Part shown: positions 12,143 to 57,282 of the stretch, piece after piece
Layout of the letters: every line of letters begins with the position of its first letter
How positions within the stretch are numbered: the stretch's first letter is position 1
Source: Candidatus Nealsonbacteria bacterium
Lineage (GTDB): Bacteria > Patescibacteriota > Minisyncoccia > Minisyncoccales > PWPS01
Direction: 5' to 3'
NCBI GenBank assembly: GCA_003553505.1
Contig: PWEN01000027.1
Coordinates: 3,705-67,704 of the forward strand
DNA: 64,000 bases
The notes under the pieces: generated by a model
The model's database searches: none
Told to the model about the DNA's origin: nothing
The model's input: only the letters and a program-made list of their open reading frames with translations
Program-made: the position numbers and the translations under genes

Positions 12143-12503
12143 AAGCGATACAGGACACCTCCACTTTCGCGTCCTTCGGCAAGCTTTGCACTCCCACTGT
12201 CTGGCGCGCGGAGTTCTGAAAATACTTTTTATAAACTTCATTGACCTTTTCAAACTCTTTCATGTTCGTTAAAAAAAGCTCTACCCGTACAACGTCCTGA
12301 AACGAAAGATTAGCACTTGCAAGTATCTCTTGCATGTTCTCAATCGCCTGCTCTGTCTGTGCTTCCACGTTATCCCCCACAAGCTCACCTGTACTAGGAG
12401 AAAGACCTACCTGTCCGGAACAAAACAAAAACTCTCCTGCTTTTACCGCTTGAGAATAAGGTCCCGCAACAGGAACTTTGTTTGAAGATATCTCTTTTAT
12501 CAT
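12129..12503 (-). CDS. ridA: RidA/YjgF-family reactive-intermediate (enamine/imine) deaminase
   Basis: APYSQAVKAGEFLFCSGQVGL...VKVEVSCIA. An ATG at 12503 lies 9 nt after AAGGGAG; the track start at 12509 is TTG. Confidence 0.85.
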   Translation of the reverse strand: MIKEISSNKVPVAGPYSQAVKAGEFLFCSGQVGLSPSTGELVGDNVEAQTEQAIENMQEILASANLSFQDVVRVELFLTNMKEFEKVNEVYKKYFQNSARQTVGVQSLPKDAKVEVSCIAYAGK

Positions 12504-12661
12504 AAACAAAAACTCCCTTTTTAAGGGAGGATTACTTTACTTTATTACTTTAATATATCAAAGCAAAGACCCTCCCTTGGGGGAGATAATGATCATTTTA
12601 GAAATCATGTTCTTTGCTTTAAACATTAAGAAGATGATACCACACAATAAAAGAAAGTCAA
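12504..12661 (-). promoter_or_regulatory. Candidate promoter (TTGACT-16-TATCAT) plus a roughly 125-nt structured leader of ridA-ilvA
   Basis: -35 at 12661..12656 and -10 at 12639..12634. A 10-bp stem pairs 12560..12569 with 12611..12620. Inner hairpin CUCCC-CCAA-GGGAG. The hairpin CCUCCCUU-AAA-AAGGGAG (12513..12530) sequesters the SD and is followed by UUUUUGUUU. Confidence 0.45.
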
Positions 12662-12666
12662 TAAAT

Positions 12667-12694
12667 TAAAAGGAAGCGGCACTTAAGCCGCTTC
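12667..12694 (-). terminator. Rho-independent terminator after lysA
   Basis: Stem gaagcggc (12673..12680) / gccgcttc (12687..12694) with a U-rich tract downstream on the minus strand. Confidence 0.5.
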
Positions 12695-12700
12695 TTGCAG

Positions 12701-13882
12701 TCAGATCACATCATAGATGCTTTCTCTTTTTCTTATTAAAGAGAAGTAGTTTTTCTCCATCAGCACTTCCGCCGGTTTCGCTCTCAGGTTGTAGTGAGAA
12801 GACATGGAAAAGCCGTACGCACCTGCCATCCCTATGGCAAGAACATCACCTTCACGCACGCGAGATATTTTCCTTTCTTGCGCAAACCTGTCCCCGCTCT
12901 CGCAGATGTTGCCCACTATATCAACCTCCTCCTTCTTTCCTTTCGGGTTGGAGACATTTTCTATAGGATGATAAGAGCCGTACATCGCAGGACGTAGCAA
13001 GTGATTAAAGCCACTGTCAACTCCCGCAAAAACACGTCCATCAGGATTCCTCTTTACCGTGTTAACGGTAACAAGAAGCCATCCGGAGTCGGCAATCAGA
13101 TAACGACCGGGTTCGATCATCATGGTGACGGGTTTCCCATAATTATGAGAAAACTTTAAAAACTTATCCGACATCATCCTTCCCAGTCTCTTTACAGGCA
13201 ACTTTCTGTCTTCAGGATTGTAGGGCACTCCAAGCCCTCCTCCGAAGTTAACGAACTCAAGATCCGGAAAGCGATGTGCCTCTTTGAGCAAGACATCCAT
13301 GGCGAGAAGGAATTTGTCTGTCTCTAGTATCTGAGATCCGATATGTTGATGAATCCCTTTTATTCTCAGGCAGTTTCTTTTCGCTATTTCCAGTGCCTCA
13401 TCTAACTGAGAGTGCCAAATACCAAACTTGGATTCCGGCCCTCCGGTTATGCAGTGGCTGTGATGACCAGCGCCAACATCAGGATTGATCCTTATAGAAA
13501 CATCCTTCCCACAGTGTCTTGATCCGAATCTCTCCAGAGCAGAAAGGGAGTCAATATTTATCATCACCCCTTTTTCGGCAACAAAGTCCATCTCATCATC
13601 GGTAACATTGTTACCGGTGAAAAGAACAAAAAAATCATGACGCAAACCAAGCGCCACCTCTCCCGGAGAAACAGCGTCAACGCCCACACCCTCTTCTTTG
13701 AGTATCTTGAGAATCTCAGGATTGCTGTTTGCCTTCATCGCATAAAGAACTTTCGTTGGGAAGTACGGAATAGCATCCCTCAAAGTCCTTGCCTTCTCTC
13801 TTATCCTTCCTCCTTTATAAACGTAGGTTGGTGTTCCAAAAATTCTATTCACCTCTTTGAGTCTCTTTCTCAGTTCATTCAT
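12701..13882 (-). CDS. lysA: Diaminopimelate decarboxylase
   Basis: YAMKANSNPEIL (PLP Lys), GGGLGVPY, EPGRYLIADSG, CESGD. Start chosen at the ATG at 13882, 8 nt after AAGGAGGG. Confidence 0.85.
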   Translation of the reverse strand: MNELRKRLKEVNRIFGTPTYVYKGGRIREKARTLRDAIPYFPTKVLYAMKANSNPEILKILKEEGVGVDAVSPGEVALGLRHDFFVLFTGNNVTDDEMDFVAEKGVMINIDSLSALERFGSRHCGKDVSIRINPDVGAGHHSHCITGGPESKFGIWHSQLDEALEIAKRNCLRIKGIHQHIGSQILETDKFLLAMDVLLKEAHRFPDLEFVNFGGGLGVPYNPEDRKLPVKRLGRMMSDKFLKFSHNYGKPVTMMIEPGRYLIADSGWLLVTVNTVKRNPDGRVFAGVDSGFNHLLRPAMYGSYHPIENVSNPKGKKEEVDIVGNICESGDRFAQERKISRVREGDVLAIGMAGAYGFSMSSHYNLRAKPAEVLMEKNYFSLIRKRESIYDVI

Positions 13883-14001
13883 CTCTTCTCCCTCCTTCTT
13901 CTTATAATTTAAAGTGTGCTTCCCCCCTTCTATTAGAAATAGATTATACAATAAAAAAGAGTTAAAAACAATCCTTAATAAAAATAATAAACCCTAGGCG
14001 C

Positions 14002-17040: not shown

Positions 17041-18207
17041 CTACTCTACTTCAATGCTAAGAAGAATGTCTCTTACTTTCTGATCATAGCCTTTGTCTTC
17101 AGGGTCAGCAATAAAATGAGAAGTGATAACAACTTTATTATTATCTTCAAACAGAAAAAAGACATGTTCTCCGTTCAAACCCCCTTCTATCTTAAAAGTT
17201 AATGCACTCTTTCCGTTTACTTCTGCCCGAGAAGGGTCCGCAATAGGATCAACTTCTTGTGTTCTCTCTTCAAACTCTTCTTCTGCGATACTCTCTAAGC
17301 TTCTTTCCTCCTTATCCACCACATCAACAAAGAAAGTAAAACCATCGGTAATTTGCGTCATATGACTATCTTCTCCAACATAGGTAACCTTTATCCTCTC
17401 TTCCTCATAATCAACAAATGCAGAAGAAGGATACTCGAAAAAAACACCCAGAGAAAGGCTTCTGTATGCTTTATGATCCTCTTTTTGCAGCCCTTCTCCT
17501 TCTTTATCAATAGACCATCTTACTTGGTCGTTTCCGGGATGCTCTGTTGTGAAGTAAAGCCTTTCTTCTGACCACTTTAAGTACTGAAATACGGGCATAA
17601 ACTGCCCCGCCTCTTCATCAGATTCTAGAGCTTCTAAAATATCTCTCTCATCAAGCATGAACCTTCTCTCTAAGTTGACTACATCATCAACCAAGAGAAA
17701 GTCTCCTCTTGCTCTACCAGTTCCAACAGTGTAGGCAACCAAGTCGTTGTCTTTAGACCAAAAGTAATCCTCAACACTTCCCGGCGAAGGATCTCTTACC
17801 ATCTCCATTTCTCCTGAATCAATATCAACTACAATAACAAATGATGTCGTGCTAGCAACAGCATAATCGGAAACAGAGAAGACCATCTTTCTATTGTCAT
17901 TTGACACAGAGACAGCCCTGTCAAAAAAACCAAACCCTGTCGGATCAACTTCTCTTCCTCCAACTTCCGGCTTTTCTTCAAAAACATGCCAGTTCTCTTC
18001 TGTCCACTGATTAAGCTCATCAATGGTAAGTTGAAATACGATATCACCTTCTTCATTTAAGACTCTAATCTCTTGTGACTCTATTCCATCCTCAGGGATA
18101 AACTCTACTTCTAGTCTCATATCCTCCTCCATGTCTCTTGTCACAAAATATCCAGCCCCAACTAAAGCAATAATAGCGATTAATAAGAATATGTATACTG
18201 TTCTCAT
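17041..18207 (-). CDS. Membrane-anchored extracytoplasmic protein, unknown function (possibly beta-propeller-like)
   Basis: N-terminal TM IFLLIAIIALVGAGYF. Beta-rich acidic body. 388 aa. Confidence 0.55.
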   Translation of the reverse strand: MRTVYIFLLIAIIALVGAGYFVTRDMEEDMRLEVEFIPEDGIESQEIRVLNEEGDIVFQLTIDELNQWTEENWHVFEEKPEVGGREVDPTGFGFFDRAVSVSNDNRKMVFSVSDYAVASTTSFVIVVDIDSGEMEMVRDPSPGSVEDYFWSKDNDLVAYTVGTGRARGDFLLVDDVVNLERRFMLDERDILEALESDEEAGQFMPVFQYLKWSEERLYFTTEHPGNDQVRWSIDKEGEGLQKEDHKAYRSLSLGVFFEYPSSAFVDYEEERIKVTYVGEDSHMTQITDGFTFFVDVVDKEERSLESIAEEEFEERTQEVDPIADPSRAEVNGKSALTFKIEGGLNGEHVFFLFEDNNKVVITSHFIADPEDKGYDQKVRDILLSIEVE

Positions 18208-36676: not shown

Positions 36677-37111
36677 TTAGAAAAGGGTCTTCTTTTCATC
36701 AAGCGCTTCATTTGCCATTCTGTCCGCTTCTTTGTTGTAGTTACGAGAGACCGCCTTAAAACTTACTTTTTTAAAATCAAGACAAAGATTCCAAAGCTTT
36801 AAAAATAAAGGTTGCAACTTCTCATTCTCTATCTTGTACTTTCCTTTCATATGATTTACAAGCAACTCGGAGTCCGACCTAAGCTCCACTTCCGTTTCCT
36901 TTGCAAGACTTTTTCCAAAAACAGATTTGAACTTGGAGAGCGCAAAAATAACCGCCTTGTACTCCGCTTCATTGTTTGTAAGACTATCACCAAGATACTC
37001 TTTGTACTCTTTTATCTTCTCTTTTTTTTCATTATAAAAAACGGCTCCTGCCGCTGCGGGTCCGGGATTTCCGCGTGCCCCGCCGTCAGTGTATATAGTT
37101 ATTTTTTTCAT
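36677..37111 (-). CDS. rnhA: Ribonuclease HI
   Basis: IYTDGGARGNPGPAAAGAVF, NNEAEYKAVIFAL, NKEADRMAN (DEDD residues). Confidence 0.8.
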   Translation of the reverse strand: MKKITIYTDGGARGNPGPAAAGAVFYNEKKEKIKEYKEYLGDSLTNNEAEYKAVIFALSKFKSVFGKSLAKETEVELRSDSELLVNHMKGKYKIENEKLQPLFLKLWNLCLDFKKVSFKAVSRNYNKEADRMANEALDEKKTLF

Positions 37112-38195
37112 AGAAGTAACTTGTAAGACACTTTTTAAATTTTTCTATGTTTTCATTTTTAAGATAAAAACCCGCTGCAGGATGGTGTCCTCCAAAAGAT
37201 AAAAGACAATCCGAGCAGTGCTCCATTGCTTCCACGGCACTAAAACCGGAAGGAACACGCGCAGAGCCCTTGCTTACACTTTCTCCTTTGCTAAACACAA
37301 ATACGGGCTTCTTTGTTCTGCTTATCACCTGTGAAGCAACAGCCCCTGCAAGGTCGGGCGGAAAACTTCCTCCTCCAAAGACAATTATATCTCCATGATT
37401 AACACCATCTATTATCTCCTCTGTTTCTTTTTTTATCTCTTCGTCTCTTTTGTTGCGCTTTTCAAACAAGGATTGCACTATCTTCTCTGCCTCCTTCTCC
37501 GTTTTTGCGGAAAGAAAAAGATAAGCATCATTTATCGCTCCTCTGTTCTCTGTAATATTTAAAAGTGAAACGGTTTTTTGGACAAAATCACTTTCTATCT
37601 TTCTGCGGAGAAGCTTTAATGCCGGTGTCCGGGGATTATCGAGTAATGGCAATCCTTCATCAAGTATTTCCTTGTTCTCTCCTTTTTGGGGAACCATATC
37701 AGCAACAGTGGCAAGCGCAACAAGTTCTATAAGCTCCCTACGCATAAAAGATATATCGCTCATCTCTTGTGCAAGAGAAAAAGTAACGCCCGCATTGGCC
37801 ATCTCTTTGAAGTGATAACCGTCCCCTTTCTGCTTGGGGTCAACAATTACCTCTGCGTCCGGCAGTCCGTTCAACTGCTCGTGATGATCGACAACAATAA
37901 GACGAAAACCGGTTTCTTTAGCAGCACGGGCGCCTTCAAAGCTCGCTATTCCGCAATCAAGAGAAACAAGCAACGCAGGAGACTCATCTTGCATAAAAGA
38001 AACAGCATCAGGTGTCAGTCCGTGACCCCATCTGTTTATGTCAGAAATATAAACAGAAACACTTCCTCCCATGCTCTCTATTGTTTTTTTGAGAATGATC
38101 ACAGAACAAACCCCGTCCAGATCGGCGTCTCCGAAAAGCACAACACGCCCTTTTTCGTTTAAGATCGCTTTTGCAGCCTTTTCTATGTTCTTCAT
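37086..38195 (-). CDS. recJ: DHH/DHHA1 phosphoesterase, short RecJ-like exonuclease
   Basis: GDADLDGVCS, SLDCGI, VVDHH, and C-terminal GGHHPAAGF (DHHA1). At 369 aa it lacks the OB-fold extension. Confidence 0.65.
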   Translation of the reverse strand: MKNIEKAAKAILNEKGRVVLFGDADLDGVCSVIILKKTIESMGGSVSVYISDINRWGHGLTPDAVSFMQDESPALLVSLDCGIASFEGARAAKETGFRLIVVDHHEQLNGLPDAEVIVDPKQKGDGYHFKEMANAGVTFSLAQEMSDISFMRRELIELVALATVADMVPQKGENKEILDEGLPLLDNPRTPALKLLRRKIESDFVQKTVSLLNITENRGAINDAYLFLSAKTEKEAEKIVQSLFEKRNKRDEEIKKETEEIIDGVNHGDIIVFGGGSFPPDLAGAVASQVISRTKKPVFVFSKGESVSKGSARVPSGFSAVEAMEHCSDCLLSFGGHHPAAGFYLKNENIEKFKKCLTSYFYEKNNYIH

Positions 38196-39397
38196 AGCCC
38201 TTCTAGTCCCGGCATAGGGCTGTTGCTCAGATAAGCAAGAAGTGCACCTCCTCCGTAAGAAACGTGATCCATTTTATCGAGAAGTTCAAACTTGGAAAGA
38301 GCACTGATAGTATCTCCTCCTCCTACTATACTCAAAGCGCCGTGATTCCTTATAATACGATCTGCGATCTCCATCGTTCCCCTTTCAAAACTACTTTCCT
38401 CAAAAAGTCCTAGGGGGCCGATCCACACTATTGTTCCCGCTTCTTTTATGATCTCCCCATACATCTTAATCGTTTCCTTCCCTATATCAAATATGTCCTC
38501 ATCCCCTCTTGTATTTCCGGGTCCCGTCTCTCTTATGTATGCCGTCCCCGTTCTGTCGGGAGAAGCGATAACATCTACGGGAAGATGCGCTTTGGGAGAA
38601 GTAAAATCAACCTCTTTTACTGCATCAATAACCTCGTCTTCCGGCAAAGGAAGACCAACCGAGATGCCTCGCACTACAAGTACCGCGTTTGCCAACTTGC
38701 CACCCAAAAGAACATGGTCGGTATGTTCTATAAAGTACTTGATAGCAGAGATCTTGGACTTTACCTTTGATCCTCCAATGATCATGACTATCGGTCTTTT
38801 GGCGTTTTTCTTTACCCTGTCAGCCATAGTAACCTCTTTTTGCAGGAGCATTCCCGCAGCAGAGGGAATAAAGCGCGATATCTTTGCAACAGAAGCGTGC
38901 TTGCGATGACAAACGGAAAAGGCCTCATTTACGTAAAAATCCGCCAAAGAAGCAAGCTTGCGCGCAAACTCTTCCGAGTTTTCTTTTTCTTCTTTGTAGA
39001 GTCTTACATTCTCAAGTAAAAGCACATCTCCTTTTTTCATTTGCGAGATGCGATCCTTTACTTTTTTGCCTATACAGTCATCGACAAAGTCCACTTCTCT
39101 CTTTACAGCACTTGAAAGATGATCCTTTACACAGTAAATACTTCCTTCCGGCAACTTAGAGCTTATCCTTTCCAGTAAAGGTTTTTTTTCGTTCATTCTC
39201 CTTTTTTTGGAAGGATTTCCAAGATGACTCATCACAATCACCTTTGCTCCTTTGTTAATGAGATGTTTTATGGTGGGAGCGGCTATCTTTATGCGTATAT
39301 CGTTGCTTACACTTCCATCCTTGTTCAAAGGAACATTGAAGTCACAACGCACAAGAACGCACTTCCCGTCCACATTCATGTTCTCTATATTCTTCAT
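38192..39397 (-). CDS. pgk: Phosphoglycerate kinase
   Basis: VLVRCDFNVPL, SHLGNP, GGGDT. Confidence 0.9.
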   Translation of the reverse strand: MKNIENMNVDGKCVLVRCDFNVPLNKDGSVSNDIRIKIAAPTIKHLINKGAKVIVMSHLGNPSKKRRMNEKKPLLERISSKLPEGSIYCVKDHLSSAVKREVDFVDDCIGKKVKDRISQMKKGDVLLLENVRLYKEEKENSEEFARKLASLADFYVNEAFSVCHRKHASVAKISRFIPSAAGMLLQKEVTMADRVKKNAKRPIVMIIGGSKVKSKISAIKYFIEHTDHVLLGGKLANAVLVVRGISVGLPLPEDEVIDAVKEVDFTSPKAHLPVDVIASPDRTGTAYIRETGPGNTRGDEDIFDIGKETIKMYGEIIKEAGTIVWIGPLGLFEESSFERGTMEIADRIIRNHGALSIVGGGDTISALSKFELLDKMDHVSYGGGALLAYLSNSPMPGLEGL

Positions 39398-41004
39398 TTT
39401 TTTCTCAACGCTTCTCGAAGCGCTTCTTTTAAACTTTTACTCTCTGAGGGCTCTTGTTGTTTCTTTTTGTGCTCCCGAAGAACCTCTTTTAGTTTGTTTG
39501 TTTCTTCTTTCTGCGGCTTCTTTTCTGTTTTAAGCGCCTCCTTTAAATTTTCCGCACTCTGTTCTTGTTTCTGTGGCTTACTCTCTTCTTTTTTAAGCGA
39601 TTTACGGCAAGTCTTGCAGTAAGTGGGGCGTGTGCCATCCGGCACAAAAGGAACTTTTGTCTTTTTCCCGCACTTAGAACACTGCGCATCATAAACATCC
39701 TTCGTGCTTTCCACTACAGAGTTCTGGAAATCTCCCAGCCAACGTGAAAGCTTTTCCTCAACAACACTTCTCTCGGTAGCGTAACGCTCTATAGATGTCC
39801 TTATTATCTTGTCACGCACTTTTTCACTCTCTCCTTCCCACGGAGGTATGGTGGTAGCGGAAAAAGGTCTCCCGGACACACCATTAATCATCAGTTTTGC
39901 ATAAATATTATACTTGGGCAAGTTTATGAGATCATCAACTTTAACATCGGGAGCAAACTCTTTTTCAAGCCTTTCCGCATCCTCTGATCCAACACGGAAA
40001 GACACTATCGTTCCCATGTTACCAAAAACGGCATCCTCCACTTCCTCCTCCATCTGAGATATGTACTGGTGACCGAGTATGAGCGACAAACGGTACTTGC
40101 GCGCCTCTGAGAGTATGTTCACAAAAGATCTCGTAGCAAAGTTCTGAAACTCGTCGATGTAAAGAAAAAAGTCTTTTCTCTCTGGCTCCGGGATCTCCAC
40201 ACGCGACATGGCGGCAAGTTGCAGCTTTGTAACAAGAAGCCCTCCCAGCAACATAGAGTTGTCTTCTCCTATCTTTCCCTTGGAAAGGTTCATGATAAGC
40301 ACTTTGCGATTATCCATTATTTCACGCATATTTATGCTCGAAGTAACCTGCCCCACTATGTTTCTTATAAGCGGGTTTGAGATAAACTGCCCTATCTTGT
40401 TTTGAATAGCTGCTGTCGCTTCCACGGCGTACTGTTCACTGTAGCGCGCAAACTCGTTCATCCAAAAAGATTTTACCACCGGATCGGTAACTTTTTCGGT
40501 TACCTTGTTGCGATACTCTGTGTCCGCCATCATGCGATTTATTCCCAAAAGCGTAGAGTTGGGAGACTCCAAGAGCGCAAGGATAGTGTTATTTAGTATA
40601 TACTCCATGCGCGCCGACCAGACATCGGGCCATATCTTCTTGAAAACACCCATAAGCCCCGAAGCAACAAGGTGACGATACTCCTGATCAACGCTCTCCA
40701 TGACATTAAAGCCCATGGCATAACTCACATCAGAAGGATTAAAGTATATAACATCATTTATTCTTTCTTTGGGAACAAAAGACAAGACTCTCTGGGAAGC
40801 CTCTCCATGCGGATCAATAAACCCAACTCCTTCACCTCTTACTATGTCTTGGATGGCCATGTTCTCCAGCATAGCCGTTTTCCCCATGCCCGTTTTTCCA
40901 ATAGCATAAAAGTGACGCCTTCTGTCATCACGCTTTATGCCAAACCTCCTTTGCTTGTTGCGAAAGTTGGTTATTCCGAAAAGTGTAATATCGTTTTCAT
41001 TCAT
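39394..41004 (-). CDS. Type IV coupling protein (VirD4/TraD/TraG)-like P-loop ATPase with C-terminal CxxC-x17-CxxC zinc ribbon
   Basis: Walker A AIGKTGMGKT, Walker B FFLYIDEFQNF, ARKYRLSLILGHQYISQM. C-terminal CSKCGKKTKVPFVPDGTRPTYCKTC followed by a Lys/Glu-rich tail. No TM segment. Confidence 0.7.
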   Translation of the reverse strand: MNENDITLFGITNFRNKQRRFGIKRDDRRRHFYAIGKTGMGKTAMLENMAIQDIVRGEGVGFIDPHGEASQRVLSFVPKERINDVIYFNPSDVSYAMGFNVMESVDQEYRHLVASGLMGVFKKIWPDVWSARMEYILNNTILALLESPNSTLLGINRMMADTEYRNKVTEKVTDPVVKSFWMNEFARYSEQYAVEATAAIQNKIGQFISNPLIRNIVGQVTSSINMREIMDNRKVLIMNLSKGKIGEDNSMLLGGLLVTKLQLAAMSRVEIPEPERKDFFLYIDEFQNFATRSFVNILSEARKYRLSLILGHQYISQMEEEVEDAVFGNMGTIVSFRVGSEDAERLEKEFAPDVKVDDLINLPKYNIYAKLMINGVSGRPFSATTIPPWEGESEKVRDKIIRTSIERYATERSVVEEKLSRWLGDFQNSVVESTKDVYDAQCSKCGKKTKVPFVPDGTRPTYCKTCRKSLKKEESKPQKQEQSAENLKEALKTEKKPQKEETNKLKEVLREHKKKQQEPSESKSLKEALREALRKK

Positions 41005-42355
41005 CTTCTTTTATGGGAAGATCATGTGGTGCTTCCCTCTTTCTTGCCTCTACGCGTTGAATAACGGAAGGCGGAGCAGTAATACGCGAAGGAAAGTGAA
41101 ACAAGGAAGCGAGCTCCTCCGTATTAAGATAAAAGTAAGCGCCTTTTACGTTTTCCGGCCAGTACGCCTGCCGACGATCAACGGCGTTACGGAACATTCT
41201 CCTCTGTTTTAAATAAAGTCTTCTCTTCTGGAACCAGTAAAAGTCATACCAGTTCTGTTTTACCTTCGTTATCGTTTCTCCCCAAGGAATTATAGAGTTC
41301 ATGGCAGGATTATTAAACTGATTGAAGTAACTCATAGGAACCTTAAACCTTCCTCCGAAAAACTTATCATTTCTCGCAAGATAAACAAAGCGCAGATTCA
41401 CCTTAAACATCTGCTTAGAGATCTTTCTTTCTATCGCGGCAACGGTCTCTTTCTCACCGGGAGTAAGCATCATCTCCGGAGGATGCATCTTCTCTTCCTC
41501 TTTCTGAGGAGAAGATATTATGCCATGAACAAGCATGTCCCAGGCCTCTTTTATTATAAGCCCCCTTTCTTTGGGAGGCTTTCTTTTTACAAGCCTATCA
41601 CGCTCCTTTCTTGCTTGTGTGACCACTCCACTCTCCCCATCAGTAACAGGATTTAACTTCATCTGAATCCAAACCTGCTCCCCTTTTTCCAGTAGCGACA
41701 AGCCTTCAAGAAGAGAGGATATAGGGTCGATACGCTTCTCTTCTTTTGCTTCTCTCTCCGTCTCAAAATCAACGTAAGTTCTTATAGGATAACAACTGGG
41801 AGCAACCATGGTATAATCCGCACCCAGTATCTTCCAGCGATCGTTGGGAATATCCTGAGGAACCTTTTTGGTGTAGTCCTGTACCTGCACTATCTCCGCA
41901 TCGGGATACTGAGCATAGAGATGTGACTCGAAAACATTGCGCTGATTCTCCGGAATGCGGACAAGGAAGTGCGGGACCCCATCTATAGATGCTATCTCCA
42001 GCCCAAAAGAGAGAGAATACTCTCCCTTCCACCACTTCTCAAACCAGTTAGGAGGGCCATATATCTGCCAAAATCCCGCCAAAACAGAGTCCATGGCGCG
42101 GATAGGCTTCAATATCTCTCCCGGTATGCGTACCTCCAAAAGTATCGTCTTGGGCTTTTTGGTCATGTCCCACAAGATGTTGCGCCAAAAAAGCCAGTGA
42201 TACTTAAACTTCGGCCAGAGAATAAAAGGTAGAGGGACCCACCACCATGTTTTAATAAAATCCCACGCAATAGGTAAGATATAAGAAAAAGTAACTGTCG
42301 CCACCTCTGCCGCTTGGTATACTATATCTTTAAGCAATGGTATATTTTCCATCAT
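40997..42355 (-). CDS. Membrane protein partner of the coupling-protein-like ATPase
   Basis: Two N-terminal TM helices (Trp-rich), a large soluble region, and an end at ...LNTEELASLFHFPSRITAPP. Overlaps the ATPase gene by 8 nt. Confidence 0.55.
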   Translation of the reverse strand: MMENIPLLKDIVYQAAEVATVTFSYILPIAWDFIKTWWWVPLPFILWPKFKYHWLFWRNILWDMTKKPKTILLEVRIPGEILKPIRAMDSVLAGFWQIYGPPNWFEKWWKGEYSLSFGLEIASIDGVPHFLVRIPENQRNVFESHLYAQYPDAEIVQVQDYTKKVPQDIPNDRWKILGADYTMVAPSCYPIRTYVDFETEREAKEEKRIDPISSLLEGLSLLEKGEQVWIQMKLNPVTDGESGVVTQARKERDRLVKRKPPKERGLIIKEAWDMLVHGIISSPQKEEEKMHPPEMMLTPGEKETVAAIERKISKQMFKVNLRFVYLARNDKFFGGRFKVPMSYFNQFNNPAMNSIIPWGETITKVKQNWYDFYWFQKRRLYLKQRRMFRNAVDRRQAYWPENVKGAYFYLNTEELASLFHFPSRITAPPSVIQRVEARKREAPHDLPIKEDE

Positions 42356-43295
42356 GGCTTCTTACGAAGCGCCTCTTGTTGTTCAAGTTCTGTACAATAG
42401 TGTTCTTTTTAACCATCCTTTGAGAGAACACTTTTTCGATGATCTCATCTTTCGTTAAAGGCCCTTCTTTTTTCAGTATATCACGGATGACGTCTTTTAC
42501 TTCCCCCACGCTATAACCCCACTCCGAGAGAGCATAAACACCTCTCCCTACTAAAATAAAGCGATCGTCTTTTATAAGTTCATTGTGTACCGTTTGCGGA
42601 TTCGCTCCTCCTATGAGACTGCACACTTGACGGAAGTGCAGAGGCCTTCCTTCTCTTTTCATCGCAAGATACGATTTGTCTTTTACGCCACGCGGATTAA
42701 CTTCCGGCCAAGAAGAGAGCCCGAAGTTTCCGTCCTGCGTTTCACCTATCTTTTTTGATATCTCTAAGTAAGAAACAAGCTTCTCTTTCGGTATGCTATT
42801 TGAGGGATCAATATCCTCCACAGAAAGAACAGCGCCCTCCTGCATAAGCAACTTGCAAGCATGTTCAATGACTTCATTTGCAGAATAAAGAGAGTTCTCA
42901 TTGTTGGTCCACAAGGAGTGTCTCTCTTCTGTTTCCGACATGCGCTTAAAGTACTCTCCTACACTTAAAAGAAATATGAGGTGGCTGTCCTTCTGCTCCT
43001 CTTTGGAAAGCGAGCGTACAAGTTTGTCTTCACGCTTTACTCCCCCGAAGCGCTCCATTTCATTATTTAAAGAAATAAAAACAGAGATCTTCTTTTTGGA
43101 GTTCTCCATAACTCTTCTTACGCCATCCCTCTCTATCTGTCGCACTCTTTCACGCGTTATGCCATACTCCTCTCCTATCATCTCCAGAGTCTCTCTTCTG
43201 TGTCCGTGAAGCCCGAAACGACGCACAAGAACCTCCCTTGTTCTTTCTGGGAGGTCTGCCAATAAGGAGTGCGATATTTCGTTGTACTTAAACAT
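42330..43295 (-). CDS. Sigma-70 region-4-like HTH protein with C-terminal HARE-HTH-like domain
   Basis: LPERTREVLVRRFGLHGHRRETLEMIGEEYGITRERVRQIERDGVRRV resembles sigma region 4.2. The C-terminus VKDVIRDILKKEGPLTKDEIIEKV...RRFVRSHDGKYTI is winged-helix-like. Confidence 0.6.
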   Translation of the reverse strand: MFKYNEISHSLLADLPERTREVLVRRFGLHGHRRETLEMIGEEYGITRERVRQIERDGVRRVMENSKKKISVFISLNNEMERFGGVKREDKLVRSLSKEEQKDSHLIFLLSVGEYFKRMSETEERHSLWTNNENSLYSANEVIEHACKLLMQEGAVLSVEDIDPSNSIPKEKLVSYLEISKKIGETQDGNFGLSSWPEVNPRGVKDKSYLAMKREGRPLHFRQVCSLIGGANPQTVHNELIKDDRFILVGRGVYALSEWGYSVGEVKDVIRDILKKEGPLTKDEIIEKVFSQRMVKKNTIVQNLNNKRRFVRSHDGKYTIA

Positions 43296-43315
43296 GTTCC
43301 TACTTTTATAAAATA

Positions 43316-44200
43316 TTATTTGCTTTTTGTCAAACTATATAACAGAGGCCCTGCAAGAAACACGGAAGAGTAGGTTCCTATCGCTATTCCGACAATAAGC
43401 GCAAGCATGAAGTAGAAAAGCGTAGAAGCTCCCATAAGAAGAACGTCAAGAAGTACAAGTATTGTGGTAATAGAAGTGGCAAGAGATCTTCCGAGCGTCT
43501 CCGTAAGACTTCTGTTCACTATCTTGTAAAATCCTTTTTCCGTTCCCCTCTCTAGGTTTTCACGCACCCTGTCAAACACCACCACTGTGTCATTTATAGA
43601 ATATCCAAGAGTAGTTAGTATAGCCACCACAATAGGTATCGTCATCTGCACTCCGTAAAAATGCCCCAAGACAGAGAACAATCCCACCAGTATAAGTACA
43701 TCGTGCAAAATAGCGACTCCCACGGCAACCGCGCCGTATCTGCCAGAGTTTACGAGCTGCTCCCCTCTAAAACTTATAGCAACATAAATAATCACCAGAA
43801 GAGAAGCGATGAGTATAACTGTTACGGATCTACTTCTTAGCTCTTCTCCTACCGCTGGCCCTATCGCTTCAAAGTACTCTTCTTTAGCCCCTTCCATAGC
43901 GGAAGATATCTTTTCATAAGTTTCTTCATCGGCAGAAGAGGTGCGCACAATAAAGCGATCCTCTTCCATGTGTTGCACACGCACATCTTTCACTCCCGCC
44001 TGAACAAGACTCTCTTCTATCTCACTTACAGAGGGACGCTCTTCTTCATAGTATCCCTCAAACACACTTCCACCAGAGAACTCTATTCCCGGATTCACAC
44101 CCCAAAAAAAGAGTGAGAATACGGAAAGTAAAACAAGCAGCAGAGAGAGTGCGTAATAAAACTTCCTGTGTTTTATAAAATCAATAATCTTTATAACCAT
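43316..44200 (-). CDS. secF: Protein translocase subunit SecF
   Basis: GIEFSGGS, 6-TM profile, INDTVVVFDRVRE. Confidence 0.85.
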   Translation of the reverse strand: MVIKIIDFIKHRKFYYALSLLLVLLSVFSLFFWGVNPGIEFSGGSVFEGYYEEERPSVSEIEESLVQAGVKDVRVQHMEEDRFIVRTSSADEETYEKISSAMEGAKEEYFEAIGPAVGEELRSRSVTVILIASLLVIIYVAISFRGEQLVNSGRYGAVAVGVAILHDVLILVGLFSVLGHFYGVQMTIPIVVAILTTLGYSINDTVVVFDRVRENLERGTEKGFYKIVNRSLTETLGRSLATSITTILVLLDVLLMGASTLFYFMLALIVGIAIGTYSSVFLAGPLLYSLTKSK

Positions 44201-45618
44201 AGCTCTTCCTTTTTACCGAGCATACTGTCCGCGGCAAGCATAAGAAGAAAGCGTGTCACTATCATCGCAGAAAACATGCTTACCAAAATACCAAGCATTA
44301 AAGTTACCGCAAATCCTTGCACAAAACTGGTAGCAAACAGAAACAACATCAAAGCAACAATAAGCGTAGTAAAATTCCCGTCCCTTATAGACGGCCAAGC
44401 CCTTCTAAAGCCTTCGTCTAAACTTTCCGTAATACTGTTCCCTTTTCTTATCTCTTCACGTAACCGCGAAAAAATAAGTATATTAGCATCGATCGCCATT
44501 CCCATGGAGAGAATAAAACCTGCTATTCCGGAAAGCGTAAGAGTTATCGGTATAGTCTTAAACAAAGCAACCACTATAAGTCCGTAAAAGAGAAGCGAAA
44601 AGATGGAAAGAAGACCGGGAAGGCGGTAAGCAACCACCATGAACACACATATCGCCAAAAATCCCCAGATCGCCGCCATTACAGAGAGATGTAGAGACCT
44701 CTCTCCAAGAGAAGGTCCGATGCTCTGCTGAGAGATAAGGTTCATAGGAATGGGAAGCGCTTCTTGCAAGCTTCTTGCTATCTCTCTCGCCTCTTCCTGT
44801 TGAAGGTTTCCGCTTATCTGTGCTCTTCCCTCCGTTATCACCTCTTCTACCGTTGCCTGTTGGAGCATCTCATCATCAAGAAAAGTAGCTAAAGGACGAT
44901 CTACGTTGCGCTCTGTTATCTCTCTTAGCATCTCCGCACCCTCGTTATCAAACTCAAGAAGTATCATCGGTCTGTTTGTAGAGTAGTCAACTTCCATTCT
45001 CGCATTACGCAGATTTCCTCCTGTAAGCCCCGTAGGCTCAAAAAGATCATCGGAAAGAAGTATTTCAAGCCCCTCAAACTCTTCCTCTTGCAGTAGTGCA
45101 AAATCTTCTTCCGTAAACTCCCTAAACGGCTTTCCTATTATCTCTTCCGCCTCCTCTTCTCTTTCTTCTCTTTCCTGTTCAACACCCTCCGGTATTTCAC
45201 GAAACTCAAGAAAAGGAGTCTCTCCTATTTTGCCTATCGCTTCTTCTAGGTCATGAACTCCGGGAATTTCCACCACGAGACGCTCTCCCTTAACCTGCAC
45301 AGCAGTCTCTCCTATTCCAAATATATCTATACGCCGCTCTATTACGTTGCGCAAGCCCTGCATACGTTCTCCTACTTCGTGCTCCGGGACGTCACTAAGG
45401 TCCGCCTCATAAAGGAGGTATGCTCCACCCTGAAGATCAAGTCCTAATTGAAAATCTCTCTCTTCCATCTGTGGAAGCGAGAGGTGCGCTTTATCGTTTA
45501 AAAACTCTATCCCGCGATTAATATGCGCGGGAAAAATTGCCATATAAGCGAGAAACGCTAGAAATATCAGCAGTATTGCCGTTACTTTCTTTTTAGTCAT
45601 ATTTTTTGAGTATAACAC
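44191..45618 (-). CDS. secD: Protein translocase subunit SecD
   Basis: LGLDLQGG, periplasmic domain, C-terminal 5 TM with DANILIFSRLREE. Confidence 0.85.
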   Translation of the reverse strand: MLYSKNMTKKKVTAILLIFLAFLAYMAIFPAHINRGIEFLNDKAHLSLPQMEERDFQLGLDLQGGAYLLYEADLSDVPEHEVGERMQGLRNVIERRIDIFGIGETAVQVKGERLVVEIPGVHDLEEAIGKIGETPFLEFREIPEGVEQEREEREEEAEEIIGKPFREFTEEDFALLQEEEFEGLEILLSDDLFEPTGLTGGNLRNARMEVDYSTNRPMILLEFDNEGAEMLREITERNVDRPLATFLDDEMLQQATVEEVITEGRAQISGNLQQEEAREIARSLQEALPIPMNLISQQSIGPSLGERSLHLSVMAAIWGFLAICVFMVVAYRLPGLLSIFSLLFYGLIVVALFKTIPITLTLSGIAGFILSMGMAIDANILIFSRLREEIRKGNSITESLDEGFRRAWPSIRDGNFTTLIVALMLFLFATSFVQGFAVTLMLGILVSMFSAMIVTRFLLMLAADSMLGKKEELWL

Positions 45619-46990: not shown

Positions 46991-48613
46991 TTATGACGAC
47001 CCCATTACTCTTACCATGGAACAGTAGCGCTCCAGTTCTTTTGTTACTTTTTCATTTAAAACGGCATCCACCTCTAAAAAGAAGTAGTAATCCCAAGGCC
47101 TCAGATGAGAAGGAACGGAGTGTAGCGAGGTAAGATTTAGTTCGTGCTGTGCAAAAACGTGAAGTATGTCACGTAACACCCCCACTCTGTCATAAACCGC
47201 AAGAAGCAGAAGCGTTCTTCCGGAAGAAGGGTGCTTTACATCCCTGGCTATAAAATAAAACTTGGTGATATTGTCTTTATTGTCTTCTATTCCTTCTTCG
47301 GAAACAGACATATCATACACCTCTCCCGCTATACGGGGAGCTATAAATCCCGTCTCCTCTCCTCTTTCTTCTTTCATAGGAGCAGTGGTGGAAGAAGACT
47401 CTTTAAACTGCACACCGGGTAAGTTTCTCTCTACCCAGCGACGACACTGACGAAACGCTTGGGGATGTGTTTCTATCACCCTCACCTTCTCTTTGTCTCC
47501 AAAAAAGCACTGACTGATACTTATCTCACACGACCCAGCCACCTTTAAAGGATAGTCAATGAGGCAGTTTATCGTTTCTGACACTACACCTTCCGTAGTA
47601 TTCTCTGCAGGAACCACTCCTATCTCCACTCTTCCGGAGTTAACCGCCTCAAAAACATCACGTATCGTTGAACAAGCAACATGACGATCCGAAAAAGTGT
47701 TTGCTGCCTGATGGGAAAAGGTTCCTTCCGGTCCCAAAAAAGCAGTAAGAGCACCCTTTATCTGTGAAGCCCCTCGCGCAGCGCGCGTTCTCACAGGTTG
47801 ACTCTCCACTACACTCAAAACTTCATTTGACTTTGCCTCCGCCACCTTCTTGAAGCCTTCAAGAGAGCTAGAAGTCTTTTTGAATATCTCTTTGAATCCT
47901 TCTCTGTCCTTTTCTTCCACCTTACGCGCTAAGTCACGTACTTGATCTTCAAACTCACGCATAATTTCGGGGAAATAAGGGTTGCCTATCTCCAGCTCCG
48001 CATAAAGGTCAGGACTTTGAGATAACACTCTTCCTAATATAAGGCTTTGCAAACGAAAAACAGGTGTCAAGAAGGAGTCGTTTATCTCGTGAAGAGTTAT
48101 CGTACGTGCCAAGCTGATGTTTGCAAAGTGTACCAGTGCTTGTATGAGAGCCATCTGCTTGTCATGCTCTTGTGCATCAATCTCGATGATCTCCGCCCCT
48201 TCTTTCTTGAACATACTTTTCATAAAATCGGTAAGCTCTCCTTCTTTCCCGGCAGAACAAAATACCACGTTTTGACCTTTCAAGCTACTTGCCAGCGGAC
48301 CAAAAAGAGGATGAATACCAACACACTCCGAACGACAATCCTTCATAGCGGAAACAGGACCTTTCTTAAGAGAGGCAATATCACAGAGAAGCGCATCCTC
48401 TCTCATATTTTCCTTTACTTCCTCTATTACTTCTTTTGTATGCAAAAGAGGTACAGAGACAATAACTATATCGCTACGAGAGGCAAGATCAGAGTTTGAG
48501 AGCTTTGTGCCGTAATCAGAGACAATAACATCAAAGCCACGAGACAGAAAAAAGTCTTTAAACCAACACCCCATTCTTCCTTCACCTCCTATTATTCCGA
48601 TTTTTTTACGCAT
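46991..48613 (-). CDS. Fused prephenate dehydrogenase (TyrA) / prephenate dehydratase (PheA) with ACT domain
   Basis: N-terminal half: KIGIIGGEGRMGCWF, IVSVP, GIHPLFGP, EHDKQMALIQALVHF. C-terminal half: FLGPEGTFSHQAA, ITKFYFIA, and an ACT-like end LNLTSLHSVPS...WDYYFFLEV. Confidence 0.75.
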   Translation of the reverse strand: MRKKIGIIGGEGRMGCWFKDFFLSRGFDVIVSDYGTKLSNSDLASRSDIVIVSVPLLHTKEVIEEVKENMREDALLCDIASLKKGPVSAMKDCRSECVGIHPLFGPLASSLKGQNVVFCSAGKEGELTDFMKSMFKKEGAEIIEIDAQEHDKQMALIQALVHFANISLARTITLHEINDSFLTPVFRLQSLILGRVLSQSPDLYAELEIGNPYFPEIMREFEDQVRDLARKVEEKDREGFKEIFKKTSSSLEGFKKVAEAKSNEVLSVVESQPVRTRAARGASQIKGALTAFLGPEGTFSHQAANTFSDRHVACSTIRDVFEAVNSGRVEIGVVPAENTTEGVVSETINCLIDYPLKVAGSCEISISQCFFGDKEKVRVIETHPQAFRQCRRWVERNLPGVQFKESSSTTAPMKEERGEETGFIAPRIAGEVYDMSVSEEGIEDNKDNITKFYFIARDVKHPSSGRTLLLLAVYDRVGVLRDILHVFAQHELNLTSLHSVPSHLRPWDYYFFLEVDAVLNEKVTKELERYCSMVRVMGSS

Positions 48614-55156: not shown

Positions 55157-55594
55157 TTACTTTACCCACCCGATAAGGGTGAATCTATGAGAACTACGAT
55201 CCAAGTCTAGCTTGTATCCTTTACTGTTCTTTTGAGCATAAAAACCACTGTATCCCCTTCCGCCAAAGAGGCTCTGCAGTCCACTTCTACGACGATACTC
55301 CACTTCAAATCCTTCCGGAGAATCTTCCATTAATGTAAGCTGCTGTGCCTCTCTTAGTGATATCTCTTCTTCTCTGTCATCTTCCATATGGTAGCGCCAC
55401 AAAGCGACATCGTCATCATCTTCCGTTTGCAGTATGCCCCGCTCATCAATGTAATAAGGGTTTGTTCTGTTTTCTATAAAGATAAAGTCGTTCTCCGGAG
55501 GTTCAGGTCCCGACAAAAGAACAAACAGAAGTGTTCCTATTATGAATATCAAAGGTGCTCCCAGAGCCGGTATAAGTGGTAAGTATTTTTTCAT
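55157..55594 (-). CDS. Membrane-anchored hypothetical protein
   Basis: 145 aa. N-terminal TM. Overlaps the upstream gene by 4 nt. Confidence 0.5.
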   Translation of the reverse strand: MKKYLPLIPALGAPLIFIIGTLLFVLLSGPEPPENDFIFIENRTNPYYIDERGILQTEDDDDVALWRYHMEDDREEEISLREAQQLTLMEDSPEGFEVEYRRRSGLQSLFGGRGYSGFYAQKNSKGYKLDLDRSSHRFTLIGWVK

Positions 55595-57282
55595 CGTGTT
55601 ATAAGATCATTTATAAACGACCTAGTGGACGGTCCTACGTATCCCGTTCCACTTGTCAGCCCCAAAGGGGCAAGTATCTCGTTTTTGTGGAGTTCTTGAA
55701 ATCGCGCAACCGCATCCCGGGTAAGCGACAAGAAGTTCCCCGTTACAAGTCCTTCAGGGTATATCTCTTCTCCCTGTGCTTTTAGTATCTGCTGTAAACA
55801 GGCCACCTCTCGAGAGTTTGTCATTCCCACACTCAAGTTCTCCGTTATCCTTTCACAGGGAAGCGATTCTGCAACGATACGCGCACGCAGATAGGAAAGC
55901 TCTCTTTTAACTTCCTCTATCTGTCTTAAAAGCTCTCTTACGCGCTCCTCTCTGGTCATCTCTTCTGACTTTCTTTTTATATCCACTTCCCAAGAGAAGT
56001 AGTGCGAAGGGTTAGGTCCATTAAAGCCCTCGTGCCTGCTTTGCAGAGAAGGAATGATGGTGAGCGAAGAATACTCCTCTCCGAACTCAGAAATATTTAT
56101 CTCTCCTTTTCCATCATCAGAGAGGTCTATAAAGTCCAGCTTACAGTTCTTGTTATTGTTCTCTTTGCAGAGCACATAAGGAACTTCAAATCTGTTCTCG
56201 TTATTCCCATCAAAGCGGAAAGAGAGATGTCCTTCTCCTCCCACAATACGGTACCAGTTACCCGCCCAATCCTTGGTATTGTATCCTACGGAGAGCGACC
56301 CTCTCTCGGTAAAAGGAAGTATGTTCGTTTTGGGACGGATCGTAAGATCGGAGAGGTGCTCATTTTTATAACAGTAGTACTCTCCCAGAGAGCAATCATT
56401 CATATAGACCGCTATCGTCCAATCTGTAAAGATATCGGAAAACGACTTGTCGTATCCAAGAGAGTCAAGCGCATAGTCAATACTCGGTATACCCACAAGA
56501 GAGGACTTCAAAGACTTCTCTAACACCTCTACTCCGTAGTGATCGACAAGATACTGTCCAAAAAGTGTCACCGATCCATAATCCGCGTTCCTTCCTTCCC
56601 ACTCTGTGAGAGGGTTATCGGGGTTGGATTTGAAGTTATTCACTCTTCTCTGTAAATTACTGCCCTCATACTCCTCATCATAACCAAGAAAGGTGGGCAT
56701 ATACTCCGCACGTAACTCGTTTAGCCACACCTCTTCTATCACACCGTGTTCACGATTCTTTTGCGCAAAAGTAACAAGATGCATGAACTCATGTCCCAGA
56801 TCAGCGGGAAGAAGAGGTTCTTCTATCTTGTTACTGCTAAGATAGAGAAGATTTCTTTCATTGGAGTTTTGCACTTGGCGTTCACTGTACTGGTCCGCGG
56901 AGTTGAAGTACCCTCCTACTCCACTGGGCATCTCGTGAAAAAGGACGGATATTCGTCTCTCATCGCTTATCCTGTGGTCGGGTTCCGAGCCAAAAACGGA
57001 GGTTATCTGGTCATATATCTCTTTTTCGAACTTATTACCGAGACTATAAATTATACTCTCATACTCGCTCCTTTTGTCGCTTGAAAGATCCTCCCACCAG
57101 GAAGAGTCCACGTAAAAATGTAGTTTGTTGGTCGTTTTTTGCAGATGAGCATCTATTTTTGAGCGTCCGTGTCTGTCATAGCTTTCATCAACAAAAAACT
57201 CTTCTGAGCTATCCGAAAAAGCCCCTGCTGTCAAAGGGAGTGCAAAAACAACCAAAAGCAGTATTTTAATGCTTCTTTTCAT
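55591..57282 (-). CDS. Secreted putative zinc metalloprotease with C-terminal peptidoglycan-binding domain
   Basis: Signal peptide. HEFMHLV (HExxH) with a downstream Glu (WLNELRAEY). A coiled coil, then ACLQQILKAQG...LTRDAVARFQELH (PG_binding_1-like). Confidence 0.6.
   Translation of the reverse strand: MKRSIKILLLVVFALPLTAGAFSDSSEEFFVDESYDRHGRSKIDAHLQKTTNKLHFYVDSSWWEDLSSDKRSEYESIIYSLGNKFEKEIYDQITSVFGSEPDHRISDERRISVLFHEMPSGVGGYFNSADQYSERQVQNSNERNLLYLSSNKIEEPLLPADLGHEFMHLVTFAQKNREHGVIEEVWLNELRAEYMPTFLGYDEEYEGSNLQRRVNNFKSNPDNPLTEWEGRNADYGSVTLFGQYLVDHYGVEVLEKSLKSSLVGIPSIDYALDSLGYDKSFSDIFTDWTIAVYMNDCSLGEYYCYKNEHLSDLTIRPKTNILPFTERGSLSVGYNTKDWAGNWYRIVGGEGHLSFRFDGNNENRFEVPYVLCKENNNKNCKLDFIDLSDDGKGEINISEFGEEYSSLTIIPSLQSRHEGFNGPNPSHYFSWEVDIKRKSEEMTREERVRELLRQIEEVKRELSYLRARIVAESLPCERITENLSVGMTNSREVACLQQILKAQGEEIYPEGLVTGNFLSLTRDAVARFQELHKNEILAPLGLTSGTGYVGPSTRSFINDLITR

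Follow-up and report, generated by a model that had tools for sequence, protein, structure and literature searches.

Gene organization of the locus

We analysed a stretch of 64,000 nucleotides (the window) from Candidatus Nealsonbacteria bacterium (assembly GCA_003553505.1, contig PWEN01000027.1, positions 3,705 to 67,704 of the forward strand), and in particular a module of three consecutive minus-strand genes in it. The first gene encodes a protein with a sigma-70 region 4 (sigma-r4) domain and a HARE-HTH domain (hereafter the helix-turn-helix or HTH protein), the second a DUF8128 protein, and the third an ATPase of the kind found in type IV coupling proteins (T4CPs). A preliminary description of this DNA, made from its letters, had regarded the three as an orphan translocase similar to coupling proteins. 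The open reading frame (ORF) list and the subsequent searches place the genes and their features as follows.

42330..43295, minus strand: 321-aa sigma-r4/HARE-HTH protein, upstream gene of the module (Pfam: Sigma70_r4 1.8e-14, HARE-HTH 3.7e-6)
43110..43265, minus strand: sigma-70 region 4 domain, residues 11-62 (Pfam, PDB)
42342..42500, minus strand: HARE-HTH winged helix, residues 266-318 (Pfam)
40997..42355, minus strand: 452-aa DUF8128 protein with a predicted fold like the VirB4 N-terminal domain (PF26449, AlphaFold2 model, Foldseek)
42161..42334, minus strand: Trp-rich hydrophobic helical hairpin, residues ~8-65, presumed membrane anchor (AlphaFold2 helices 8-37 and 42-65)
41087..41128, minus strand: conserved C-terminal motif LNTEELASLFHFPS (E414, H420, F421 and P422 invariant in 50 homologues and a divergent set)
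39394..41004, minus strand: 536-aa soluble T4CP-type ATPase with nucleotide-binding and all-alpha domains, zinc ribbon and Lys/Glu tail (Pfam, NCBIfam, PDB, Foldseek, hhalign)
40876..40899, minus strand: Walker A GKTGMGKT, residues 36-43 (invariant in alignments A2 and A4)
40144..40170, minus strand: Walker B FFLYIDEFQ, residues 279-287 (D284, E285, F286 and Q287 invariant)
39607..39681, minus strand: CxxC-x17-CxxC treble-clef zinc ribbon, residues 442-466 (zf_Tbcl_2 4.6e-12, TIGR04272 2.6e-12)
39397..39606, minus strand: Lys/Glu-rich, predicted-disordered tail with two SLKEAL motifs (pLDDT, the predicted local distance difference test score, ~30 at residues 476-522) and a terminal amphipathic helix (522-534)

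A soluble motor of the coupling-protein type

As judged from Pfam, profile comparison and predicted fold, the 536-aa protein is a T4CP-type motor that has no membrane anchor. Pfam matched TrwB_AAD_bind (PF10412) at residues 26-321 with an E-value of 1.6e-9 (37.6 bits against a cut-off of 20.5) and TraG-D_C (PF12696) with 1.2e-6 (28.9 bits against 22), NCBIfam gave partial matches to TraD models, and a PDB sequence search returned TrwB and DotL. A profile of 40 homologues was aligned by hhalign with residues 117-393 of TrwB (probability 93%), while the VirB4 protein TrwK gave a match in the P-loop only. Foldseek searches with the AlphaFold model (pLDDT 72), in which a helical block at residues 107-217 represents the all-alpha domain inserted in the nucleotide-binding domain, placed DotL, TrwB and Cagbeta at the top (E ~1e-10, TMt ~0.6, probability 1.0 for TrwB and DotL), followed by HerA, and VirB4 was not among the top 50 matches. 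In Pfam, neither CagE_TrbE_VirB nor AAA_10 matched the protein, and FtsK_SpoIIIE gave no match at E <= 0.1. There is no hydrophobic segment, the top Kyte-Doolittle 19-mer being 1.28. The coupling-protein kinship, the missing transmembrane (TM) anchor, both Walker motifs and the exact zinc ribbon, all proposed in the preliminary description, are therefore upheld by these searches, as is the long Lys/Glu tail.

The Walker A and B motifs, together with ARKYRLSLILGHQYISQ, are invariant or nearly so among the homologues, and Walker A was kept in all 145 homologous ATPase ORFs of the fetched loci. The zinc ribbon CSKCGKKTKVPFVPDGTRPTYCKTC, a motif unique to the ATPase within the window, exceeds the curated cut-offs of both zf_Tbcl_2 (residues 436-467, 45.9 against 27 bits) and TIGR04272 (46.3 against 36 bits). 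Since the ribbon was found in 116/145 homologous ORFs and was missing from the other 29, it is common yet dispensable. In the tail, the SLKEAL motifs are conserved among homologues. Some homologues (P0056, P0066, P0086 and P0108 in alignment A2) end in G(I/L)(I/M)KPGE(T/V)(I/V)KF after the Lys/Glu tail, and the window ATPase terminates in SLKEALREALRKK instead; the two kinds of ending may be alternative docking motifs.

Compared with the T4CPs (VirD4, TrwB, TraD, DotL and Cagbeta), which are its best sequence, profile and fold matches, the window ATPase shares the nucleotide-binding and all-alpha domains, the Walker A and B motifs and a TraG-D_C-type C-terminal region. It differs in that the N-terminal TM domain is absent (the alignment with TrwB begins at TrwB residue 117), in the added zinc ribbon and Lys/Glu tail, in its separate 452-aa partner, whose predicted fold resembles the VirB4 N-terminal domain, and in its setting, which is chromosomal, core and vertically inherited, with no relaxase or type IV secretion system (T4SS) genes as neighbours in 64 kb. 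A few known T4CPs are likewise without an N-terminal TM domain (PMC7431656). For the CxxC-x17-CxxC motif, the literature reports only zinc binding in small proteins of Methanosarcina.

The DUF8128 partner and the split polypeptide

The window protein and most of its homologues carry a precomputed Pfam match to PF26449 (DUF8128); our own Pfam and NCBIfam scans of the 452-aa protein, made with a Pfam copy that does not contain PF26449, returned nothing. Its AlphaFold2 model is of good quality by its scores (pLDDT 85, predicted TM-score 0.80), and the top 12 Foldseek matches in the PDB were all TrwK/VirB4 of R388 (best E 9e-5, probability 0.96-1.0, TM-score ~0.3). The next matches were chains of the ESX-3 translocon, which are weak (E from 0.011).

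Membrane anchoring of the DUF8128 protein is likely. Residues ~20-48 are Trp-rich and residues ~22-47 are favourable on the Wimley-White scale, the model shows a helical hairpin there, and divergent homologues have clearer TM stretches. The preliminary description had assigned two Trp-rich TM helices to this region; the Trp-rich hairpin stands, but the Kyte-Doolittle peak of only 1.3 is sub-threshold and two clean TM helices are not proven for the window protein. At the other end, the low-confidence tail that follows LNTEELASLFHFPS (pLDDT <60) still holds the invariant residues R434, P443, L446 and P447, and we infer that the conserved motif and tail are a docking site for the ATPase.

The two genes encode two halves of one ATPase of the VirB4/VirD4 superfamily (FtsK-HerA clade). 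The phage protein family phrog_5156 of PHROGs (824 positions) matches the ATPase at positions 403-804 (E 6.4e-55) and the DUF8128 protein at 82-290 (E 3.2e-4). In hhalign comparisons with gp156 of phage G (825 aa), residues 92-240 of the DUF8128 protein aligned with gp156 residues 32-160 (probability 94.4%, E 8.5e-8), and residues 30-390 of the ATPase with gp156 residues 377-754 (99.9%, E 2.4e-33). In a fold search of BFVD with the DUF8128 model, gp156 again ranked first among the viral proteins (E 5.6e-17, TMq 0.52), ahead of proteins of phages JL and Slash and then gp155 of phage G (E 1.5e-6), whose C-terminal domain is VirB4-like (P-loop_TraG, AAA_10). As gp156 aligns with both proteins, the split of a single polypeptide suspected in the preliminary description is genuine. 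The prototype envisaged there was, however, a classical coupling protein with a TM domain and a nucleotide-binding domain, and judged from the predicted folds the unsplit form is instead a VirB4-style ATPase with an N-domain and a motor.

VirB4 (TrwK) has an architecture like that of the window pair, in that an N-domain associated with the membrane precedes a RecA-like motor, whereas VirD4, TraD and TraG have no counterpart of the 380-aa soluble domain of the DUF8128 protein. In contrast to VirB4, the motor half in the window is T4CP-like. Separate proteins for pieces of the VirB4 N-domain have precedent in TrsD (PMC12102498) and in CedB/CedD (bioRxiv 10.1101/2024.09.27.615246).

The nearest relatives with both halves in one chain are the phrog_5156 proteins of Bacillus and Geobacillus phages (gp156 of phage G, gp91 of CP-51, gp48 of TP-84 and gp32 of 0105phi7-2). 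These are fused proteins of ~750-910 aa from replication/partition regions of phages or plasmid-prophages, whereas the window pair is split. The alignment with gp156 begins at DUF8128 residue 92, which indicates that gp156 has no counterpart of the hydrophobic hairpin, and Pfam found no zinc-ribbon family in the five phrog_5156 homologues scanned. The N-domain of CP-51 gp91 gave no significant hhalign match to the DUF8128 profile; the related protein of phage JL matches by fold. Among cellular relatives there was no DUF8128 protein of fusion length, the 150 best of 2653 representatives measuring 199-579 aa.

The fused phage homologues lie beside ParA, RepA or nicking Rep genes. In CP-51 and 0105phi7-2 (L091:6460-7311 and L093:7343-8513), the fused gene adjoins genes for 'replication initiation by nicking' or ParA/RepA partition genes, which suggests a role in the handling of phage or plasmid-prophage DNA. 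The adjacent gp155 and gp156 of phage G (L090:2196-6338) are both ATPases with a DUF8128-like N-domain by fold, the C-domain being VirB4-type in one and T4CP-type in the other; together they look like a phage-borne VirB4/VirD4-like pair.

The sigma-r4/HARE-HTH protein

The preliminary assignment of the third protein to sigma-r4 plus HARE-HTH agrees with Pfam. In a PDB sequence search, its region 4 domain was closest to region 4 of RpoS/RpoD (E 1.8e-12), and the recognition helix TRERVRQIE is conserved. The protein is not a sigma factor, because sigma region 2 is absent from it; all NCBIfam sigma models scored far under their cut-offs. Region 4 and HARE-HTH are modules that bind double-stranded DNA or associate with RNA polymerase. 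HARE-HTH domains are described in the literature as winged helices that sense DNA or N6-methyladenine.

Synteny and conservation across Patescibacteria

We compared the locus in two sets of genomes, namely 80 species representatives nearest to the window (Nealsonbacteria, Moraniibacteria and other Paceibacteria; set 1) and 78 loci centred on the class ABY1 (Falkowbacteria, Buchananbacteria, Magasanikbacteria, Kerfeldbacteria and Uhrbacteria; set 2). Together these are 158 species-level genomes from two Patescibacteria classes, and adjacency was counted over the informative loci.

Set 1: ATPase gene directly 3' of the DUF8128 gene in 61/67 loci; HTH gene directly 5' in 70/74; secF upstream of the HTH gene in 50/68; pgk after the ATPase gene in 35/57
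Set 2: ATPase gene directly 3' of the DUF8128 gene in 48/68 loci; HTH gene directly 5' in 50/71; secF abutting the DUF8128 gene, with no HTH gene, in 15; pgk after the ATPase gene in none

When both sets are pooled, the ATPase gene follows the DUF8128 gene in 109/135 loci and the HTH gene precedes it in 120/145, so that the trio is syntenic in related genomes. In set 1, the ATPase had a median identity of 61% and SecA one of 59%, against 42% for the HTH protein and 38% for the DUF8128 protein. Homologues of the ATPase form at least 8000 clusters at 63-80% identity, and all source names that bear a taxon are Patescibacteria; DUF8128 has 2653 representatives at 50% clustering. In at least two Patescibacteria classes, the trio belongs to the core genome as a module passed on by vertical inheritance.

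The complete trio, though frequent, is not obligatory. Some ABY1 lineages have a module with no HTH gene. In a Falkowbacteria-like clade of the same class (15 species representatives), the ATPase gene lies away from the DUF8128 gene, in the order NrdR-NrdD-NrdG-ATPase, with the HTH and DUF8128 genes still paired. In 10 of these 15 (among the loci L176-L198), the relocated gene is followed by one for an RNase_T/DnaQ-type exonuclease, whose start overlaps the ATPase stop in L177 (2206-8501). The relocation was probably a single event. A different variation occurs in Parcubacteria DG_74_3 (L001:6375-6629), where an extra 84-aa ORF with no Pfam match, not present in the window, lies between the HTH and DUF8128 genes.

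Many contigs with the locus (L036, L066, L084, L086, L098 and others) are titled Gammaproteobacteria, Saccharibacteria, Pacearchaeota, Binatia, Bdellovibrionales or Planctomycetota, and several of these also carry secA and/or secDF. Such contigs are probably mislabelled or misbinned metagenome-assembled genomes, and record titles are therefore unreliable for judging the taxonomic distribution.

The label "orphan" in the preliminary description is misleading, since the module is conserved in at least two classes and VirD4-like genes are nearly universal in the phylum. Quinonero-Coronel et al. (2025; PMC12102498) counted 5,713 VirD4-like proteins in 2,918 of 3,035 Patescibacteria genomes (96%) and VirB4 in 2,417, and only 148 of the 5,713 VirD4-like genes were near virB4. 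They left the role open: in Southlakia epibionticum a t4cp homologue is non-essential for epibiotic growth and other T4SS genes are essential, for which reason exaptation "cannot be ruled out" (PMC12102498); kinship of that homologue to the window ATPase family is not implied. In the literature we found neither the DUF8128 partner nor the zinc ribbon described, and likewise no account of the sigma-r4/HARE-HTH companion or of the fused phage forms; no paper mentions DUF8128, and T4CPs are absent from the main text of Wang et al. (2023). The module described here represents a distinctive branch of the conjugation ATPase superfamily that belongs to Patescibacteria and is nearly ubiquitous among them.

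Neighbouring genes and the content of the window

The module is flanked by the following genes, of which secD and secF are conserved upstream neighbours annotated with Pfam in the syntenic loci.

44191..45618, minus strand: secD
43316..44200, minus strand: secF
38192..39397, minus strand: pgk, downstream neighbour of the ATPase gene
37086..38195, minus strand: DHH/DHHA1 phosphoesterase gene, downstream of pgk
36677..37111, minus strand: RNase HI gene, downstream of the DHH gene

The three ORFs and their overlaps of 26 and 8 nt, from which the preliminary description had derived translational coupling, were found again when the DNA was read directly. The end of the HTH gene (...ATT GCT TAA) overlaps the start of the 452-aa ORF (ATGATGGAA...) by 26 nt, and the 8-nt overlap ATGAATGA is common to the stop of the 452-aa ORF and the start of the ATPase gene. 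The other head-to-tail junctions, however, also overlap (secD/secF by 10 nt, ATPase/pgk by 4 nt, pgk/DHH by 4 nt and DHH/RNase H by 26 nt). Since overlaps run through the whole operon (36677..45618), coupling is a property of the entire compact operon and not of the trio alone.

A Pfam scan of the 43 ORFs in the window found housekeeping genes only, including those for SecA, SecDF, PGK, LepA, MurJ, NrdDG, pyruvate kinase, Obg, FtsEX, RF2, EF-P and MurB. It found no VirB4, VirB6, relaxase, pilin, integrase or phage genes in the 64 kb, in agreement with the core-genome setting first supposed, and the GC content is even across the locus. There were likewise no T4SS or relaxase genes in the syntenic loci annotated with Pfam, the other loci having been checked for the window's neighbour genes only.

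Possible function of the module and alternative explanations

The most likely function of the module, to which we assign a probability of about one half, is that of a membrane-anchored nucleic-acid translocase which works independently of a T4SS. By analogy with the TrwB and VirB4 hexamers, the ATPase and the DUF8128 protein would assemble at the cytoplasmic face of the membrane, where DUF8128 would form a membrane-proximal ring, with probable docking via its conserved EELAxLxHFP/RVEAKK..LP tail. ATP hydrolysis would then move a polymer, most likely DNA. The zinc ribbon, the Lys/Glu tail and the sigma-r4/HARE-HTH protein would recruit or select the nucleic acid, much as relaxosome accessory proteins feed classical coupling proteins. 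On this reading, the module would serve a housekeeping process that needs no conjugative T4SS, the candidates being the import or handling of DNA for nucleotide supply and the handling of the chromosome. The idea of nucleotide supply starts from Patescibacteria as organisms unable to make nucleotides.

The features that lean towards nucleic acids are the zinc ribbon, the sigma-r4 recognition helix, the HARE-HTH domain, the DHH phosphoesterase and RNase H genes downstream, and the NrdD-NrdG(-RNase_T) setting in one clade. The neighbourhoods with nuclease and ribonucleotide reductase genes hint weakly at nucleic-acid or nucleotide metabolism. For nucleotide scavenging and host interaction, the roles put forward in the preliminary description, the gene context likewise offers no more than weak hints. 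FtsK/SpoIIIE and Streptomyces TraB belong to the same ATPase superfamily and embody the same concept, in which hexamers anchored in the membrane translocate DNA and a winged helix that recognises DNA guides them; in the window module, however, the DNA-binding domains are on a separate protein, and the family match to FtsK_SpoIIIE is lacking.

Several observations weigh against a nucleic-acid translocase of this kind. The link of DUF8128 to the VirB4 N-terminal domain is one of fold only, at TM-scores of ~0.3, and the protein gave no sequence match to TrwK, TrwB, TrsD and TrsE of pGO1, or any PDB sequence. Members of the ATPase superfamily also move proteins, as EccC/EssC and the effector-recruiting T4CPs do, and the most persistent neighbour of the module is SecDF, a component of protein export. 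The nuclease and reductase neighbourhoods may be inherited gene order. The zinc ribbon is absent in 29/145 homologues and the HTH gene in some ABY1 lineages, and hence neither is essential to the core mechanism. Finally, the absence of a T4SS was seen within 64 kb of the genome, and such a system may be encoded elsewhere in it.

Within the nucleic-acid reading, we tentatively propose a more specific version, which we consider possible: the module would be a T4SS-independent, lineage-defining housekeeping DNA translocase, that is, a two-subunit VirB4/VirD4 hybrid membrane motor that imports or handles DNA, for instance for nucleotide supply, with the sigma-r4/HARE-HTH protein as an adaptor that selects DNA, possibly by sequence or methylation state.

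The alternative that survives best, though we regard it as rather unlikely, is that the ATPase is the ordinary coupling protein of a Patescibacteria T4SS encoded elsewhere in the genome, recruiting effectors or DNA for delivery to the host, with DUF8128 as its detached anchor. The T4CP fold and family matches of the ATPase suit this explanation, and so do the reported presence of T4SS genes in ~80% of Patescibacteria, with t4cp often far from virB4 (PMC12102498), and our view of no more than 64 kb of the genome. However, VirD4-like genes occur in more genomes than VirB4 does (2,918 against 2,417) and are near virB4 in only 148 of 5,713 cases (PMC12102498), and canonical T4CPs do not need a partner that resembles the VirB4 N-terminal domain. 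The module, moreover, has a fixed place among Sec genes in a housekeeping operon and is conserved at the level of SecA, and the t4cp homologue of Southlakia, whatever its relation to the window ATPase, is non-essential.

A second alternative, which appears doubtful to us, would make the module a protein-handling ATPase of the Sec pathway. It might extract or feed proteins of the membrane or for secretion, comparable to VirB4 acting on pilins and EccC on substrates of the type VII secretion system; the HTH gene would then be an unrelated neighbour. The persistent linkage to SecDF keeps such a role alive as a rival: SecD-SecF lies directly upstream in 50/68 Paceibacteria-type loci and directly 5' of DUF8128 in the 15 ABY1 loci that have no HTH gene, SecA is found further upstream, and the weak ESX-3 matches of the DUF8128 fold point the same way. 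Yet coupling proteins associated with DNA are the nearest to the ATPase, which also has a zinc ribbon and a basic tail, an adjacent HTH gene was counted in 120/145 informative loci, and the gene context is possibly an ancestral gene order and not a functional link. A gene order of the secDF-recJ type is also found in Firmicutes.

It is highly improbable that the module was left behind by a mobile element (a conjugative element or a prophage) or is carried by one, or that it serves in anti-phage defence as a HerA/MADS-type system. The fused homologues nearest to it do come from Bacillus phages, where they adjoin ParA, RepA or nicking Rep genes, and PADLOC gave a mad8 match (1.7e-13) and weak HerA matches. 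The window, however, contains neither integrase or relaxase genes nor any of a T4SS or a phage, the GC content is even across the locus, and position and order are kept across 158 species-level genomes with SecA-like conservation, the opposite of the patchy distribution of defence and mobile genes. A remnant of conjugation or of an integrative and conjugative element is ruled out by the all-housekeeping window and the synteny across these genomes, and the PADLOC matches to defence systems are outweighed by distribution and conservation.

Much of bacterial diversity belongs to the Patescibacteria, whose conserved genes are mostly of no known function. The present analysis gives an anatomy to the VirD4-like genes that are not linked to virB4: a split motor with a DUF8128 partner that is a VirB4-type N-domain by predicted fold, a usual HTH companion, fused counterparts in phages and conservation at the level of SecA. 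If the module is a stand-alone translocase of DNA or protein, the conjugation ATPase family would have a new cellular role, and there would be a candidate route by which reduced symbionts acquire or manage nucleic acids. If it is a T4SS-independent housekeeping DNA translocase, this would be a cellular use of the conjugation ATPase lineage that was not recognised before.

Other observations in the window

Almost every gene of the window is on the minus strand, and the GC skew is negative in each 2-kb bin. A 388-aa ORF (17041..18207) has no Pfam match, and two large proteins of 674 and 563 aa, encoded at 8022..10046 and 55591..57282, have a weak match to PG_binding_1 only. Genes of amino-acid metabolism are encoded at 46991..48613 and 10904..13951, namely a fused prephenate dehydrogenase/prephenate dehydratase/ACT protein of 540 aa, a threonine dehydratase and an Orn/DAP/Arg decarboxylase, which are somewhat unexpected for a reduced Patescibacteria genome.

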